Positions 14,537-60,008 are shown, counted from the stretch's first letter. The stretch is 64,000 nucleotides of DNA from Bacteroidota bacterium (GCA_029974985.1 JARKQC010000227.1:1460-65459); one strand, 5' to 3'. A program made the numbers and translations. Notes: generated from the letters alone by a model not told the origin.

Positions 14537-14558
14537 AACCTACTACAATTTTTTTTCA

Positions 14559-14589
14559 GTTGTCCTACATTTCCGAAATGTAAGACAAC
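14559..14589. repeat. Palindromic module A: GTTGTCCTACATTT-ccg-AAATGTAAGACAAC
   Basis: 14-bp stem with one mismatch. Related to the perfect copy at 38567 and followed by the same linker TAGRAAACTGAG. Confidence 0.75.
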
Positions 14590-14602
14590 TAGGAAACTGA
14601 GG

Positions 14603-14622
14603 CAACGGGGCATGCCCCGTTG
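14603..14622. repeat. Palindromic module B, perfect 20-nt palindrome CAACGGGGCATGCCCCGTTG
   Basis: The sequence equals its own reverse complement. GC-rich island in an AT-rich spacer. Confidence 0.75.
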
Positions 14623-14638
14623 TCTATAAACTTCTCAA

Positions 14639-14663
14639 CTACACTTCAAAAGTGTAGGACAAC
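14639..14663. repeat. Module A partial copy: CTACACTT-caa-AAGTGTAG-GACAAC
   Basis: 8-bp stem. Right arm AAGTGTAGGACAAC is identical to the 38584-38597 arm. Left outer arm is degraded (tctcaa in place of gttgtc). Confidence 0.6.
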
Positions 14664-14703: not shown

Positions 14704-15852
14704 TTAAACACTTTTAAGAATTTCCCTTGCAATTACAAGATTTTGAATTTCGGAAGTTCCCTCATAAATTTCAGTAACCTTTGCATCTCTCATCATTCTT
14801 TCAACTTGATATTCCCGTACATATCCATAGCCACCGTGAATTTGAACTGCTTCGCGAGTAACTTCATTAGCAATTGTCGAAGCAAATAATTTAGCCTCCG
14901 AAGATTCTCTAATATGGTCTAATTTATTATCGCGTAGCCAAGCGGCTTTATGAGTAAGAAGTCTTGCGGCACTAATTTTCATAGACATTTGTGCAAGTTT
15001 TGCTTGAATAAGCTGATGTTCAGCGATAGGTTTGCCCATAGTTTTCCGTTCTAAAGAATATTTTACAGCCGCTTCGAAGGCTCCTTGTGCAATGCCAACA
15101 GATTGAGCGGCAATACCGATTCTTCCTCCATTAAGACCACGCATAGCTATATAAAAACCTTCACCAACATTTCCAATTAAATGCTCTTCACTAACTTTAA
15201 CATTTGTTAATCCAATAGAAGTAGTCTCACTTGAGCGAAGCCCCATTTTGTCTTCTTTAATACCCGCCTCAAAGCCGGGGGTATCATTCGGAACAGCAAA
15301 ACAAGCAATTCCTTTGTGCTTTAATTCCTTATTAGTTTGAGCAAATACAATGCTCACATTTGAATGTTTTCCTGTAGTAATCCAATTTTTTGTACCATTT
15401 AATATCCAATCATTACCATCTTTTTCAGCTATAGTATTTTGTTGTCTTGCATCTGAGCCAGCTTCGGGTTCGCTCAAGCAGTATGCACCAAGATATTTAC
15501 CTTCTGCGAGCGGTCTTAAATAATTTTCTTTTAGAAAATCACTTCCATAAGTTTCTAAAATCCAGCAAACAAGGGAATTTTGTACTGATGCGACAACAGC
15601 AACGCTTGCGTCAACTTTTGCAAATTCTTCTATTGCGAGCACATAACTAACTACATCAAGCTCCGAGCCACCCCATTCTGAAGAAACCATCATTCCAAGG
15701 AAGCCAAGTTCTCCCATTTTTTTTAAAATTTCGCTTGGAAATTCAGAATTCATATCTCTTTGAATAGTTGTTGGTAAAATTTCTTCTTGAGCAAATTTTC
15801 GAGCCGCATCTTTAATTTGTAATTGAATCTCACTAAATTCAAATGATAGCAT
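14704..15852 (-). CDS. Acyl-CoA dehydrogenase (short/branched-chain type)
   Basis: 382-aa ORF. Motifs YCLSEPEAGSD, QIHGGYGY and catalytic-base region EIYEGTSEIQ. Confidence 0.92.
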   Translation of the reverse strand: MLSFEFSEIQLQIKDAARKFAQEEILPTTIQRDMNSEFPSEILKKMGELGFLGMMVSSEWGGSELDVVSYVLAIEEFAKVDASVAVVASVQNSLVCWILETYGSDFLKENYLRPLAEGKYLGAYCLSEPEAGSDARQQNTIAEKDGNDWILNGTKNWITTGKHSNVSIVFAQTNKELKHKGIACFAVPNDTPGFEAGIKEDKMGLRSSETTSIGLTNVKVSEEHLIGNVGEGFYIAMRGLNGGRIGIAAQSVGIAQGAFEAAVKYSLERKTMGKPIAEHQLIQAKLAQMSMKISAARLLTHKAAWLRDNKLDHIRESSEAKLFASTIANEVTREAVQIHGGYGYVREYQVERMMRDAKVTEIYEGTSEIQNLVIAREILKSV

Positions 15853-37801: not shown

Positions 37802-38554
37802 ATGAAAAAGTATCTCAAATTTTGCAGAATCGCAGTATATAATTTATTATTACCAATTATTTTGGTAGTATATTTTATTGTGCAGAATAGTCCACAAATA
37901 TTAGCCGACATACCCGTAGATGAAAAACTTATTCAGATTGAGAATTTTGATATAGTAAATGGTCCAAATTTGAAAATGACAGATACTATATATGTAGTTA
38001 CAAAATTTCGTGCTAAAATGAATTGTAATGTGTCTTTTTGGATTCCAGTACAATATGGACTAAGCTTGCCCGAAGATACAATTACAAATTTCTCATATAC
38101 TAATGTGTTAAATGTTGGAAATGATGAGTTAGTTGAGCATAAAGTGGCATTTGTTATTCGTGATACAACTGTGTCTTGCTTAATGGTGTCTGTACGTATT
38201 AAGGGGTATGAATTTGGGCCGCCAATTGGATATTCCATTCACGATGAGTCTGGATATCGCTGTTTGACTTCTATTAAGTATTATAAGGACACGACAGTTT
38301 CTGTATGGAAAATAAAAGAAAACCCTATTGATTTTTCCATCTATCCCAATCCCGCATCGAATTTCATCAAGATTTCTATAGAAAATGAGGCAGGTTTGCT
38401 CCCTCGCGAGGTACAGATACTTGATTTATTAGGTCTTGTTGTTACAAAATTAGAGCTTAACGACGGCAATAATAGAATAGATATTTCCAATTTACCAAGA
38501 GGCACTTATTTTATAAAAGTAGGCGATAAAGTGGAGAAATTTGTGAAGATGTAG
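37802..38554 (+). CDS. T9SS C-terminal target domain-containing protein (unknown N-terminal domain)
   Basis: 250-aa ORF. C-terminal Por tail IYPNPASNFIKISI...LPRGTYFIKVGDKVEKFVKM. Confidence 0.7.
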   Translation: MKKYLKFCRIAVYNLLLPIILVVYFIVQNSPQILADIPVDEKLIQIENFDIVNGPNLKMTDTIYVVTKFRAKMNCNVSFWIPVQYGLSLPEDTITNFSYTNVLNVGNDELVEHKVAFVIRDTTVSCLMVSVRIKGYEFGPPIGYSIHDESGYRCLTSIKYYKDTTVSVWKIKENPIDFSIYPNPASNFIKISIENEAGLLPREVQILDLLGLVVTKLELNDGNNRIDISNLPRGTYFIKVGDKVEKFVKM

Positions 38555-38566
38555 TGTTTTGTTTAA

Positions 38567-38597
38567 GTTGTCCTACACTTTTAAAGTGTAGGACAAC
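38567..38597. repeat. Palindromic module A, perfect: GTTGTCCTACACTT-tta-AAGTGTAGGACAAC
   Basis: 14-bp perfect stem with a 3-nt loop. Followed by the linker TAGAAAAACTGAG, as in the 14559 copy. Confidence 0.8.
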
Positions 38598-38610
38598 TAG
38601 AAAAACTGAG

Positions 38611-38625
38611 ACAATGGGGTAACCA
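38611..38625. repeat. Module B half-copy (ACAATGGGGTAACC)
   Basis: The left arm caatgggg matches module B. The right arm is missing, but the position after the conserved linker is the same as at 14603. Confidence 0.4.
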
Positions 38626-38663
38626 AATTGCTATCAATTGATATTTAATGGTGAAGCTTATAA

Positions 38664-38684
38664 ACAATGGGTTATGCCCTAATT
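38664..38684. repeat. Module B degenerate copy (ACAATGGGTTATGCCCTAATT)
   Basis: About 16 of 21 positions match the 14408 copy by eye; pairing is partly lost. Confidence 0.35.
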
Positions 38685-38813
38685 TATCAGTCTTTTATTT
38701 CTAGACATTTAATAATGCTTATCTTACCAATTTTACACTTTCAACTATATAATTGATTCCAATTTTCTTTTATAATAACAAATATGAATTAACACACATA
38801 AAAAATATTATTG

Positions 38814-38852
38814 ATAAAAAAAACCTTCCAAAAAATAGTAATTTGGAAGGTT
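38814..38852 (-). terminator. Rho-independent terminator of rpoC
   Basis: Minus strand: AACCTTCCAAA-9 nt-TTTGGAAGGTT followed by TTTTTTTT, about 25 nt after the rpoC stop. Confidence 0.7.
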
Positions 38853-38877
38853 AATTATTTTTTATAAAAATTAATTT

Positions 38878-41800
38878 TTATAAAGTAATTTTGTCAGCCT
38901 CGAACTCTTCATCTTCAAGATTTAATTGAGAATTTTCAGAATCCAATGCTTCTTCGATATTATCATAGATATTTTTACCAAAAATATTACCTATTTCGCT
39001 ATTTACGGTCATTTCTTGGTATGATCTTAAACCAGTACCAGCTGGAATTAACTGTCCAATAATAATATTTTCTTTAAGACCTTCAAGATTATCAACTTTA
39101 GCTGCTACAGAAGCTTCTGAAAGTACTCTTGTTGTCTCTTGGAACGATGCCGCAGAAAGCCAACTTGTTGTAGTTAGTGATGCTTGTGTGATACCAAGCA
39201 AAACGGGATCTCCAATTGCTGGTTCACTTGGAGTGAATTCAACAAGTCTTAAATCTTTTTTCTTTAATTCATTATTAATTTCTTTGACTTTTTTTCTCTG
39301 AACTAAATAGCCTTCGTTATATTTTGAATCACCTTTATCGGTTATTAAAACCATATTTTTGAGGCGATTATTTTCGTCATTAAAATCTTGACGGTCAACA
39401 TTATCATTTTCGAGTAATGAGGAATCACCAGATTCAACGATTTTTACTTTTTGAAGCATTTGTCTAACGATAACCTCAATATGCTTATCATTAATTTTCA
39501 CACCTTGCATACGATAAACTTCTTGTATTTCGTTTACAAGATATTCTTGAACAGCATTTGCACCTTTAATTCTCAAAATATCGTGCGGATTAATTGAGCC
39601 TTCGGTAAGTCTATCACTTGTACGAACAAAGTCGCCTTCTTGCACAAGTATATAACGCCCTACGGGAACACTATACTCAATTCTTGTTTTCTCATCTTGT
39701 GATGTTACAACGATAACCCTTTGCCCACGTTTCATTTTATCAAAACTAATAATACCATCAATATCAGAAACGATAGCTGGATTCTGCGGTGAACGTGCTT
39801 CGAATAATTCTGTAACACGAGGCAAACCACCTGTAATATCACGTGTTCTTCCCAAATCTCTTGGGATTTTTACAAGTGAAGAACCAACGCTTACCAAATC
39901 ATTATCATCTACTCTTAATTGAGCACGTGATGGAATATTATAAGATTTCAAGACTTGTCCCGTGTCGTCAATAACTTCGATTAATGGAATTTTTGTTCTA
40001 TCTTTCGAGTCAATAACAATTTTAGTTATATGTCCGGTTTGTTCATCATTTACTTCACGGTAAGTAACATTATGAATCAAATCTCTATATCTAATTTTTC
40101 CAGCAAATTCGGTTATAATAGTAGCATTATAAGGATCCCATTCATAAAGTATATCACCTTTTTTAATAAGCTGACCATCGGCAACAGATAAATTTGCACC
40201 ATAGGTTACATCATATTTAGTAAGCATTCTATTACTATCGGGGTCAATAATTTGAATAATACCACTACGACTTGTCGCAATAGTAATCGTACCTTCGTCG
40301 CCTTCGTAACTAATAGTACGAATATTTTCAAAATTAACTACACCATCAAATTTTGCAACAACTGATGATTGAGAAGCAACGAGTGCCGCTGTACCACCTG
40401 TATGGAAGGTACGTAAAGTAAGCTGAGTACCAGGTTCACCAATTGATTGAGAAGCAATAGTACCAACTGCCTCGCCTATATCAACTAATTTACCAGTTGC
40501 AAGATTACGTCCATAGCATTTAGCACAAACTCCTTTACGTGATTCGCAAGTAAGCACAGAGCGTATTAAGACTGATTCAATAGAAGTAGCTTCTATTTTT
40601 GCAGTAATATTTTCATCAATTATTTCACCATCTTTAAGTATTAATTCTTCGGTGATAGGATCAATTATATCACGAAGAGCTGTTCTACCAACAATTCTTT
40701 CTGCTAATGATTCTTTTACCTCTTCCCCATCTTTCAATGCTGTCATTTCCACACCACGAATCGTACCACAATCGGGTTGGGAAATAATTACATCTTGGGC
40801 TACGTCGTGGAGTCTTCTTGTTAAATAACCAGCATCGGCAGTTTTTAAAGCTGTATCTGCAAGACCTTTACGAGCGCCGTGTGTAGAAATAAAATATTCT
40901 AATATTGATAATCCTTCTTTAAAATTTGATATAATTGGATTTTCGATTAATTCACCTGTCGAGCCAGATAATGACTTCTTAGGTTTAGCCATCAGACCTC
41001 TCATACCAGCAAGCTGTCGGATCTGTTCTTTAGAACCTCTTGCTTTTGAATCGAGCATCATCCAAAATGTATTAAATCCTTGTTTATCTTTTTGCATTTC
41101 ATTATACAATCTATCAGCAACTACGTTAGTAGCAGTTGACCAAGTATCAATAATTTTGTTATAACGCTCTCCACCACTTATTACACCATTACGATAAGCT
41201 TCTTCAATTTTATCAACTTTGCTTTGAGCATTTAAAATAATATTTCGTTTTACATTTGGAATAACAACATCATGAATACTTACAGACAATCCACCTTTTG
41301 TAGCGTATGTAAAGCCGAGGTCTTTAAGTTCATCAAGAAATTCGACTGTTTTAGCTAATCCGGCTTCGCGGAAACATATACCAATAATCTGACGCAATCT
41401 ATTTTTAGTAAGTAATTCATTAATAAAACCAAGTTCATCTGGAACGATTCTATTTAGAATTACTCTGCCAACGGTTGTTTCGATTATTTCTTTATTAAAA
41501 CGTACTTTTATTTTCGCATGTAGTTCAGCTTTTCCTTGGTCATAAGCAATTCTAAGTTCTTCTGGACTTGCGAATACTTTACCTTCTCCGATACAGCCTA
41601 ATTTCATTTTTGTAAGATAATACACACCAAGAACCATATCTTGTGATGGCACAGTAATAGGATCACCATTTTGAGTGTGCATTATATTATGAGGTGCTAA
41701 CATTAAAAGCATTGCTTCTAATTGAGATTCATAACTTATCGGAACGTGAACAGCCATCTGGTCGCCGTCAAAGTCGGCATTAAATGCAGTACAAACAAGT

Positions 41801-43176
41801 GGATGCAACTGAATTGCTTTACCTTCAATTAAACGTGGCTGAAATGCTTGGATACCAAGACGATGAAGAGTTGGAGCGCGATTAAGCATTACGGGATGTC
41901 CGTCAATTACTTTTTCAAGAATATCCCATACTTCATTTGTCTTACGTTCAACCATTTTTTTAGCACTTTTTACAGTCTTAACATGCCCGCGTTCTATTAA
42001 TCTTCTAATAATAAATGGTTTAAATAGCTCGACAGCCATATCCTTAGGTAATCCACACTCGTGAATTCTTAATTCTGGACCAACAACGATAACTGAACGT
42101 CCAGAATAATCAACTCTTTTACCAAGAAGATTTTGTCTAAATCGTCCTGTTTTACCTTTTAATGTATCAGCAAGTGATTTTAAAGCACGTTGAGATTCAC
42201 TTCTTACAGATCTTCTACTATTATCAAATAGTGCATCAACGGCTTCTTGGAGCATTCTTTTTTCATTTCTTAAAATTACTTCTGGTGCTTTAATATCAAT
42301 TAGTCTTTTCAAACGATTATTACGAATAATAACTCTTCTATAAAGGTCATTTAAATCAGAAGTTGCAAATCGTCCTCCTTCAAGTGGTACTAATGGACGT
42401 AAATCTGGTGGTGTAACAGGTATAACATCAAGTACCATCCAGCTTGGTTCATTAGGATAATTACTTTTTTGACTATTTTTGAAAGCATCGAGAACACGTA
42501 ATCTTTTTAATAATTCAGTTTTTTTCTGTTGTGAGGTTTCAACTTTTAAAATTTCTTTTAATTCAAAATATTGTTTTTCGGGATTGATACGTTTTAACAA
42601 TTCTTTGATAGCTTCGCCACCAATTAAAGCAATAAATTTATTAGGGTCTTCATCATCGAGAGCAAGGTCTTCTTTTGAGAGCGTGTCTAATACATCGAGA
42701 TATTGCTCTTCAGTTAATAAGTCTTTGGTTTGAAGACCTGTTTTACCGGGTTGGACAACTATATAAGATTCATAATATACAATTCTTTCTATATCTTTTG
42801 TAGGCATTCCTATAACAGCACTTATCTTACTTGGCAATGTTCTTAAAAACCAGATATGAACTACTGGTACAGCAAGCATAATGTGTCCCATTCTTTCTCT
42901 TCGAACAGATTTTTGAGTAACCTCAACGCCACATCTATCGCAAACAATACCTTTATATCTAATTCTTTTATATTTACCACAAGCGCATTCCCAATCACGA
43001 ATCGGACCGAATATTTTTTCACAGAACAAACCGTCTTTTTCAGGGCGGAATGATCTATAATTTATCGTTTCCGGTTTAGAAATTTCTCCGTGTGAACGAT
43101 TGAGAATATCATCTGGGGAGGCGATTCTAATCGAAATTTTTGAGAAACCTCTTCTTGGTATTGATAATGATTGCAT
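38878..43176 (-). CDS. rpoC: DNA-directed RNA polymerase subunit beta-prime
   Basis: 1432-aa ORF. Zn finger Cx[12 protein letters not shown], catalytic [12 protein letters not shown], bridge-helix and trigger-loop regions. AAGGAG SD upstream. Confidence 0.98.
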
Positions 43177-59918: not shown

Positions 59919-60008
59919 TCATTCTGAGCTTTTTCAGATTTGATGTCCAACATTTTTGGAAGTGTTGGACATCTTACTTATACAGATTTTTCACTGCGTT
60001 CAGAATGA
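59919..60008. repeat. Module E outer stem (TCATTCTGA ... TCAGAATGA) enclosing a module D hairpin
   Basis: 9-bp long-range inverted repeat (59919-59927 with 60000-60008) read directly. Confidence 0.5.
59942..59973. repeat. Palindromic module D: GATGTCCAACA-10 nt-TGTTGGACATC
   Basis: 11-bp perfect stem with the same arms as the 21536 and 21662 copies. Confidence 0.75.

Follow-up and report, generated by a model that had tools for sequence, protein, structure and literature searches.

Introduction

The closest described systems to the element reported here are the REPs and BIMEs of Escherichia coli together with TnpA-REP (PDB 4ER8), jointly termed a "REPtron," in which short imperfect palindromes occur in tens to hundreds of extragenic copies at gene 3' ends, carry an unpaired conserved motif (a 5' GTAG) beside the stem, form mosaics with other motifs, and flank a single-copy HUH-Y1 gene. 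In the REPIN-RAYT systems of Pseudomonas, related hairpin copies within one genome comprise a master sequence and its variants and are organized as symmetric inverted doublets (PMC3116915). Among the RAYT proteins, subclass 2.6 (Bertels group 5) is rich in Bacteroidetes, has the Y motif YIH[QN]NP, and is flanked by "atypical secondary structures" that are copied elsewhere in the genome, and in-frame REP insertions have been described for subclass 2.4 (PMC6006769). REPs that bear CGTC tags and have no dedicated transposase have been reported in Bacteroidetes, Chlorobi, and other phyla (PMC3733652).

Here, we analyzed a hairpin-bearing intergenic site in a 64,000-nt stretch of DNA from a Bacteroidota bacterium (GCA_029974985.1, JARKQC010000227.1:1460-65459; hereafter, the window), the related copies in the assembly that contains it (G000; 4.30 Mb, 28.8% G+C, 382 contigs), and the counterparts of these copies in other genomes, and we compare the resulting repeat family with the systems above.

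Results

Composite sites in the window

The site consists of a hairpin (module A), a short linker, and a second hairpin (module B), and the window holds another such composite as well as further related hairpins, as follows:

38566..38598, plus strand: module A, A-GTTGTCCTACACTT-tta-AAGTGTAGGACAAC-T, a hairpin of the REP type (perfect 15-bp stem, 3-nt loop)
38598..38610, plus strand: linker TAGAAAAACTGAG, the tail of A (consensus TGGRRAA) and then the head of B (ACTGAGR)
38611..38619, plus strand: left arm of module B, ACAATGGGG
38620..38663, plus strand: 44-nt insertion splitting module B, unique in the genome
38664..38684, plus strand: remainder of module B, decayed (ACAATGGGTTATGCCCTAATT versus the consensus ACAATGGGGCATGCCCCATTG)
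38685..38729, plus strand: decayed continuation of the composite, in which GTCTTTTATTTCTAGACATTTAATAATGCTTATCTTACCA aligns with GTCTTTTATTTCTAAACAAGCAAGAATGCTTATCCTACCA of the intact composites on C126, C256, and C269
14408..14429, strand not assigned: another copy of module B, ACAATGGTGCATGCCCCATTGT, in the spacer that also contains 14558-14663
14558..14590, plus strand: second module A copy, in which T-A replaces C-G at one stem pair, with one C/A mismatch
14590..14601, plus strand: linker TAGGAAACTGAG
14602..14624, plus strand: intact module B hairpin, GCAACGGGGCATGCCCCGTTGTC
14625..14663, minus strand: inverted A-type unit with 6 nt of one arm missing, its orientation read directly from the sequence
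59942..59973, strand not assigned: sister-subfamily hairpin GATGTCCAACATTT-ttgg-AAGTGTTGGACATC, with T-A changed to A-T at one pair

At the first site, the inner part of module A (38567-38597) reads GTTGTCCTACACTT-tta-AAGTGTAGGACAAC, with A38566/T38598 as the fifteenth pair. The hairpin starts 12 nt past the end of a T9SS C-terminal-domain gene (37802..38554; stop codon at 38552-38554), and its predicted fold as single-stranded DNA reaches -16.7 kcal/mol (z = -6.0). When aligned against the intact composites on contigs C269, C256, C126, and C295, positions 38555-38729 prove to be one composite of A, linker, B, and a further stretch that ends in a decayed ACAAGCAAGAATGCTTATCCTACCA module. The initial annotation had described the module B part as decayed, with a half copy at 38611 and a degenerate copy at 38664; the decay is genuine, but the two pieces are a single B split by 44 nt, and an 8-nt direct repeat (ACAATGGG, at 38611-38618 and 38664-38671) flanks the insertion. 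A search for the 44-nt insert (38620-38663) returned no other occurrence in the genome. The copy at 38566-38729 is an old, decaying composite. Half a module B (GACAATGGGG) followed by an insert and then by a full or decayed B was seen at three loci (G000 C194:36415-36501, C372:107071-107189, and window positions 38611-38684), with inserts of 13, 13, and 44 nt; this pattern may be the footprint of a B-targeting agent or may result from slippage.

At the second site, the inner module A occupies 14559-14589. Because positions 14625-14663, when read on the minus strand, give an A unit, GTTGTCCTACACTT-ttg-AAGTGTAG/TTGAGAAGTTTATA, followed by a tail-like TTGAGAAG, the block at 14558-14663 comprises A, B, and a second A-type unit in inverted orientation (A'), the two A-type units being tail to tail, and the same A-B-inverted A' block is found on contigs C82, C194, and C323. 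As single-stranded DNA, the block is predicted to favor three local hairpins (-26.1 kcal/mol, z = -6.5), a REPIN being one long hairpin of two inverted REPs. Inverted A...A' pairs occur here and at about four other loci, and most A copies are singlets or members of direct arrays. Both composite sites (38566-38729 and 14558-14663) sit between convergent ORFs. RAYT genes in two genomes of the window's own family have hairpins of the sister-subfamily type (59942..59973) at their flanks.

These data bear out the parallel that the initial annotation had drawn between 38567-38625 and 14559-14624. The A, linker, and B parts are found at both sites, with A and B above chance: the A arm has 7 matches in the window compared to 0.71 expected (0 of 100 shuffles had as many), and module B has 2 compared to 0.00 expected. 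The bare 12-nt linker pattern, with 2 matches in the window, a number equalled in 15 of 100 shuffles, is not significant taken by itself. The paired stem change is real as well, with C-G at 38578/38586 standing against T-A at 14570/14578. An Rfam search of the window at gathering scores returned tRNAs only, and the region 38300-38950 gave sub-threshold chance matches only.

Module A as a genome-wide hairpin family

A structure-aware scan of the 4.3-Mb assembly yielded about 78 module A and about 48 module B hairpins; among the repeated words of the genome that are not AT-rich, module A is the most abundant. With its 33-nt unit, made up of a 15-bp stem and a 3-nt loop, module A falls within the 20 to 40 nt of the stem-loops known as REP palindromes. 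In an alignment of the 54 A copies that have a 3-nt loop, standard pairs are formed in 95.9% of the 810 stem cells compared to 88.7% in shuffles, and changes on both sides affect 7 of the 15 pairs (61 cells versus 19 in shuffles, with 0 of 500 shuffles as high); if the partner is slid by 1 to 3 columns, pairing falls to 34 to 44%. As the copies are paralogues within one genome, the covarying cells are not independent events, yet they represent several distinct compensated types, namely, GATG..CATC versus GTTG..CAAC versus GCTG..CAGC; ACACTT/AAGTGT versus ACACCT/AGGTGT versus ACGGCT/AGCCGT; and CCTACA/TGTAGG versus CCAACA/TGTTGG. Seven A copies are hybrids with arms of two different types. The 78 copies comprise 62 distinct sequences, so current activity is doubtful, and the diversity fits an older or inactive population.

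This genome-wide collection of copies is part of the check that the initial annotation had proposed for its claim of helix-preserving covariation, and the claim holds, as neither the observed pairing nor the observed number of two-sided changes was reached in any of the 500 shuffles of the 54-copy alignment. On the same set, the loops vary freely across A copies, the linker is conserved at A-B junctions, and the proposals that the copies share common ancestry and that they are of different ages both stand.

Tails, linkers, and mosaic blocks

Module A bears a conserved, one-sided 3' tail, CTGGRRAA. With the copies oriented by their flanks, the consensus after the closing T is GGARAAA, and position-wise counts over the 78 copies are 74 T at +1, 49 G at +2, 45 G at +3, and 53 A at +4. 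A tail of the form T(G/A)GRRAA follows most A copies, with or without a B, among neighbors that are otherwise unrelated. This CTGGRRAA motif at the 3' foot of the stem, which is not the GTAG of classical REP families, is a candidate guide or cleavage motif. Copies of B without an A are often preceded by ACTGAGR, the GAG of which can pair in some variants with a CTC after B and so extend the B stem. Since the A tail is present regardless of B, and since ACTGAGR precedes B copies that lack an A, the "linker" combines the tail of A with the directly adjoining head of B. The conserved unpaired linker of the initial annotation is therefore real in that it is kept wherever A and B adjoin, but it does not constitute an independent single-stranded piece.

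The A-13 nt-B arrangement recurs at least 11 times, in 7 composites with exactly 13 nt and about 5 degenerate ones with similar linkers. Module B lies on the tail side of A in 14 of the 15 A-B adjacencies, and the outer neighbors of the A-linker-B blocks differ between loci. As in a BIME, the modules joined to module A (B, C, D, E, F, G, and H) vary from one combination to the next. A and B belong to a wider vocabulary of short modules, among them GGGTTTGGGTGAGGTAAT, ACAAGCAAGAATGCTTATCC, CCCTTCGACTACGCTCAGGGTACG, GTAGAGACGCAAAATTTTGCGTCTC, AAAATGTACAATTTGTAAAA, and a 69-nt tandem unit, which appear in shifting combinations.

Head-to-tail arrays that combine module A with a constant 38-nt filler (CTGGACAGAAGAAAAAAGTTATTTGAAAATAG..) at a period of about 69 nt were observed at G000 C94:12219-12455, C140:18418-18517, C256:1969-2071, and C275:1779-1881, upstream of small MKRYL.. 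genes. We rejected a CRISPR reading of these 69-nt tandem A arrays, the "spacers" between the hairpins being identical in sequence. A CRISPR-like array is present outside the window (G000 C251:9448-15724), with 95 copies of GTTTCCATACTATAAAGTCAATTTTAAAC at a period of 65 to 68 nt.

Placement relative to genes

With genes approximated by ORFs of 100 aa or more, 76 of the 78 A copies are extragenic. Spacers could be classified for 65 copies, of which 29 are convergent, 27 tandem, and 9 divergent; convergent spacers account for 17% of spacer length, and A is enriched there (binomial P = 3e-7) and depleted in divergent spacers (P = 0.007). Nine A copies lie near contig ends compared to 4.2 expected (P = 0.02).

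About 15 paralogous genes end in a T9SS C-terminal-domain (CTD) cassette of about 230 nt with 80 to 87% DNA identity, and their upstream parts differ. Gene 37802..38554 belongs to this set (window 38320-38554), and other cassette sites in G000 include C316:23096-23329 and C269:19608-19836. An A-type hairpin follows directly in at least 12 of the approximately 15 cassettes, after a visibly homologous spacer of 7 to 13 nt. Gene conversion at gene ends, or the shuffling of cassettes there, may account for the similarity. Because about 12 copies occupy a constant place behind paralogous CTD ends, duplication or gene conversion, and not transposition, explains some of the spread, and the copy at 38566-38729 probably reached its site together with the 3' cassette of the T9SS-CTD gene.

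A terminator scan made no call on either window copy of A (38566.. and 14558..), and module A lacks the signature of an intrinsic terminator, with a tail-side T-run in 4 of 78 copies. A head-side T-run was counted in 37 copies, by a loose criterion, in 71% A+T DNA, and with no background rate computed. The large minus-strand gene at 38878..43176 (1432 aa) is probably rpoC, judging by size and position only. Just downstream of it, at 38819-38850, is a stem CCTTCC...GGAAGG with flanking A/T runs, which has a counterpart at the same place in congener G001.

Distribution among relatives

Counted with an exact pattern for the A core, this genome has 36 matches, three of its four congeners have 0, and the fourth has 3. 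The same pattern gave 182 matches in G005, a 2-Mb genome from another genus of the family, and 0 in nearly all other relatives searched. Among the G005 copies listed, nearly all are of one sequence, and this genome also has A-linker-B composites, with the A tail CTGGAGAA. Both modules are thus patchily distributed, module B having 24 matches here, 12 in G005, 20 in G047, and 11 in G098.

Neither A nor B was found downstream of the orthologues of two conserved flanking genes in the congeners. At each locus, the congeners share only one flanking gene before synteny ends, and hence there is no clean comparison of filled with empty sites; neither an empty orthologous site nor a transposition event came to light. 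Downstream of the orthologue of gene 14704..15852 in G002 (L141, G002:C1) are other G+C-rich hairpins, CCCTATGCTGAAGCATAGGG and CCCCACGCTTTAGCGTGGGG, which may belong to another repeat family.

RAYT genes next to A-type hairpins in other genomes

Scanning one genome per species, we found the A core (TGTCCTACAC..GTGTAGGACA) in MAGs of Chitinophagaceae, Cyclobacteriaceae, other Cytophagales, Roseivirgaceae, and Kapaibacterium. Several of these loci have two hairpins 630 to 690 nt apart, with an ORF of about 190 aa that contains NHFH and YIHQNP between them. Such an ORF lies at most about 45 nt from a core hairpin in 13 of the 114 fetched loci, mostly with hairpins on both sides (Cytophagales and Chitinophagaceae). 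The ORF passes Pfam Y1_Tnp, scoring 25 to 28 bits on PF01797 against a cut-off of 23, and the best PDB match of an eight-member RAYT profile is E. coli TnpA-REP (4ER8, E = 3e-5), ahead of IS200 transposases. Genes with the hallmarks of a RAYT (NHFH or THFH, YIHQNP, and Y1_Tnp, mostly one per genome) are therefore present in these other genomes and, as in a REPtron, are flanked there by the same REP.

Within the window's own family, 33 of 121 genomes match the RAYT profile; most of them have a single match, and the matches are often near the end of a contig. These RAYTs are flanked by arrays of 33-nt hairpins that have the geometry of A (15 bp plus 3 nt) and different stems. The unit beside the gene in G052 and G113 reads AGATGTCCAACAC-loop-GTGTTGGACATC and continues into TGGGTAAA or TGGAGA (tail TGGRRAA); it matches module A except for one compensated pair and shares its tail. 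The orientation of the unit relative to the RAYT gene is identical in the two genomes, with one copy inside the gene, and some array members in G113 carry a module-A arm and are thus hybrids. The within-gene site is in frame at L146 (G003) and is soon followed by a TAA stop at L155 (G052); the G113 locus is L153. Across genomes, 12 hairpin classes show two-sided changes at 13 of the 15 pairs, a set that was picked as near-perfect hairpins, so that its 100% pairing is partly built in and only the conserved geometry is usable.

The RAYT tree groups the proteins that have GTCCTACACCT at their flanks, from Cytophagales and Chitinophagaceae, into a single clade (support 100/100), far from the RAYTs of the window's family, those next to GTCCAACAC among them; REP class is confounded in this tree both with host taxon and with the mode of locus retrieval. 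Near-identical cores flank RAYTs of distant clades, and the same hairpin core is kept from the window's family to Cytophagales and Chitinophagaceae.

Search for a RAYT in the window's assembly

Pfam Y1_Tnp, tblastn, profile search, and hmmsearch --max returned no RAYT in G000, so a partner in the same genome, as in a REPtron, is "not found," which is not to say "absent." None was found in G005 either, despite its 182 A copies. The only Y1_Tnp match in G000, on C87, was rejected as an IS605 TnpA beside a TnpB-like ORF, with ends unlike A or B; this IS200/IS605-type element (L001:1-1525) is cut by the contig end and encodes the TnpA (99 bits) and then a 382-aa TnpB-like ORF. Also rejected was a weak profile match on C3 (E = 0.04), a PIN-like ORF by eye. 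The lack of a RAYT is weak evidence because the assembly is in 382 contigs, with a 1-kb lower length limit and 11,795 nt masked; because A copies are over-represented at contig ends, where the RAYTs of relatives often lie; and because a RAYT between REP arrays is the type of locus that short-read assembly loses.

Discussion

In this study, we followed a single intergenic palindrome from one window through its assembly and into other genomes. We consider it likely that module A is a REP of the kind partnered with a RAYT/TnpA-REP HUH-Y1 transposase, of the Bacteroidota-rich subclasses, and that A-linker-B represents a mosaic similar to a BIME. What we observed directly is the repeat family with its structure and genomic placement, as well as the RAYT genes that accompany it in other genomes. 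As a REP/BIME-type mosaic tied to a Bacteroidota RAYT family, the element would therefore belong to a known class of repeat.

Mobilization by a RAYT in this organism is what we infer by analogy with E. coli TnpA-REP and IS200/IS605. On this model, the hairpin would form in single-stranded DNA at the replication fork, and the enzyme would recognize the stem together with the adjacent unpaired tail and would cut and rejoin there, which could spread or rearrange the copies. Selection or templated repair would keep the arms complementary. The hairpins may, in addition, stabilize mRNA 3' ends.

The explanations that compete with a RAYT-driven spread concern either the arrival of the copies or the nature of the hairpin itself. 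One of them leaves the nature of A undisputed and holds that this copy and about a dozen others arrived not by insertion but within a 3' cassette that was duplicated or gene-converted (CTD sequence of about 230 nt, a spacer of 7 to 13 nt, and A). We regard this as a tentative but sizeable possibility, given the approximately 15 gene ends with 80 to 87% identity over about 230 nt, at least 12 of which continue through a homologous spacer into an A-type hairpin. However, most A copies have unrelated left flanks (module C, D, or H), the same placement could recur if insertion favored a site 3' of a short target (WTWAA), and congener G003 has a CTD gene end without an adjacent hairpin. It is also conceivable, albeit rather unlikely, that A or the A-linker-B heterodimer, which occurs in two genera, is maintained or spread in the absence of a resident cognate RAYT, be it by another enzyme, by recombination of T9SS-CTD cassettes, or by transfer between lineages. 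Two genomes hold 78 and more than 180 A copies with no detectable RAYT. Such a spread, if true, would depart from the strictly vertical picture of one RAYT and one REPIN.

Other readings question whether the hairpin is a REP at all. The hairpins could primarily be RNA elements, either intrinsic terminators or stabilizers of mRNA 3' ends, that are kept at gene ends by selection and resemble each other through duplication. E. coli REPs stabilize upstream mRNA, and the stable stems and the enrichment of copies between convergent genes and just past stop codons agree with this idea. Yet it is unlikely to be the primary explanation: neither window copy meets the terminator scan, tail-side T-runs are limited to 4 of 78 copies, the neighboring large gene has its own stem and T-run at 38819-38850 (conserved in a congener), the exact A pattern is missing in three of four congeners, unlike a conserved regulatory signal, and the same hairpin flanks transposase genes. 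The last point also weighs against A and B being MITEs of a DDE insertion sequence, or the targets or footprints of a hairpin-seeking IS, with no link to Y1 enzymes, as the only gene repeatedly found adjoining the hairpin is a Y1 gene. Furthermore, A units have neither terminal inverted repeats beyond the hairpin nor target-site duplications, and the 44-nt insert is unique. These observations make an IS origin quite improbable, even though B is split by an insertion with an 8-nt direct repeat and two other loci show a half-B, a 13-nt spacer, and a full B. Perfect dyad symmetry would also be expected of operator sites for a dimeric DNA-binding regulator, but there the arms would be read base by base as half-sites, whereas here the arms change together while their sequence is not conserved, which points to a requirement for structure. 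Given, moreover, that divergent, promoter-bearing spacers are avoided, that some copies form tandem arrays, and that the distribution among relatives is patchy, we attach next to no weight to operators.

The reading of module A as a RAYT-partnered REP has practical consequences. In annotation, it accounts for a large fraction of the unusual conserved palindromes between genes in this genome and in many other Bacteroidota, and it warns against taking such palindromes for riboswitch-like RNAs or operators. It also adds a sequence-defined REP class, a 33-nt hairpin with a CTGGRRAA tail, to the Bacteroidota RAYT subclasses, the partner repeats of which are described in the literature only as "atypical"; in the literature that we searched, the module A hairpin sequence gave only unrelated primer matches. 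A sizeable REP population in an assembly without a detectable RAYT provides a test case, and the enrichment at contig ends illustrates that these repeats break short-read assemblies.

Compared to the described systems, the present family shares with the CGTC-tagged REPs (PMC3733652) that B, and A in this assembly, occur without a transposase gene that they flank; in a comparison that covers A only, it differs from them in stem and loop sizes and in having neither the CGTC nor the CCA tag. The RAYTs found next to A-type hairpins resemble subclass 2.6 (PMC6006769) in that their YIHQNP fits YIH[QN]NP, whereas their HuH motif, NHFH or THFH, fits the NH[IFV]H of subclass 2.4 better than the NH[LIV]H of subclass 2.6; subclasses 2.4 and 2.6 are both candidates. 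Like the Pseudomonas REPIN-RAYT systems (PMC3116915), the genome contains related hairpin copies with a master sequence and variants, and the A-B-A' block at 14558-14663 holds two A-type units that are inverted and tail to tail. Unlike the Pseudomonas REPINs, however, most A copies are singlets, belong to head-to-tail arrays (period about 69 nt), or adjoin other modules, and between the two units of the inverted pair there is a different hairpin (B). With respect to the E. coli REPtron, the differences lie in the tail of module A, which is a 3'-side CTGGRRAA instead of a 5' GTAG; in its nearly perfect 15-bp stem and 3-nt loop; in the Bacteroidota-type host; and in that no RAYT was found in this assembly. 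The likeness extends to the remaining features of that system: short palindromes in tens to hundreds of extragenic copies at gene 3' ends, a conserved motif beside the stem (with the tail as a candidate counterpart), mosaics with other motifs, and copies that, in other genomes, flank a single-copy HUH-Y1 gene.
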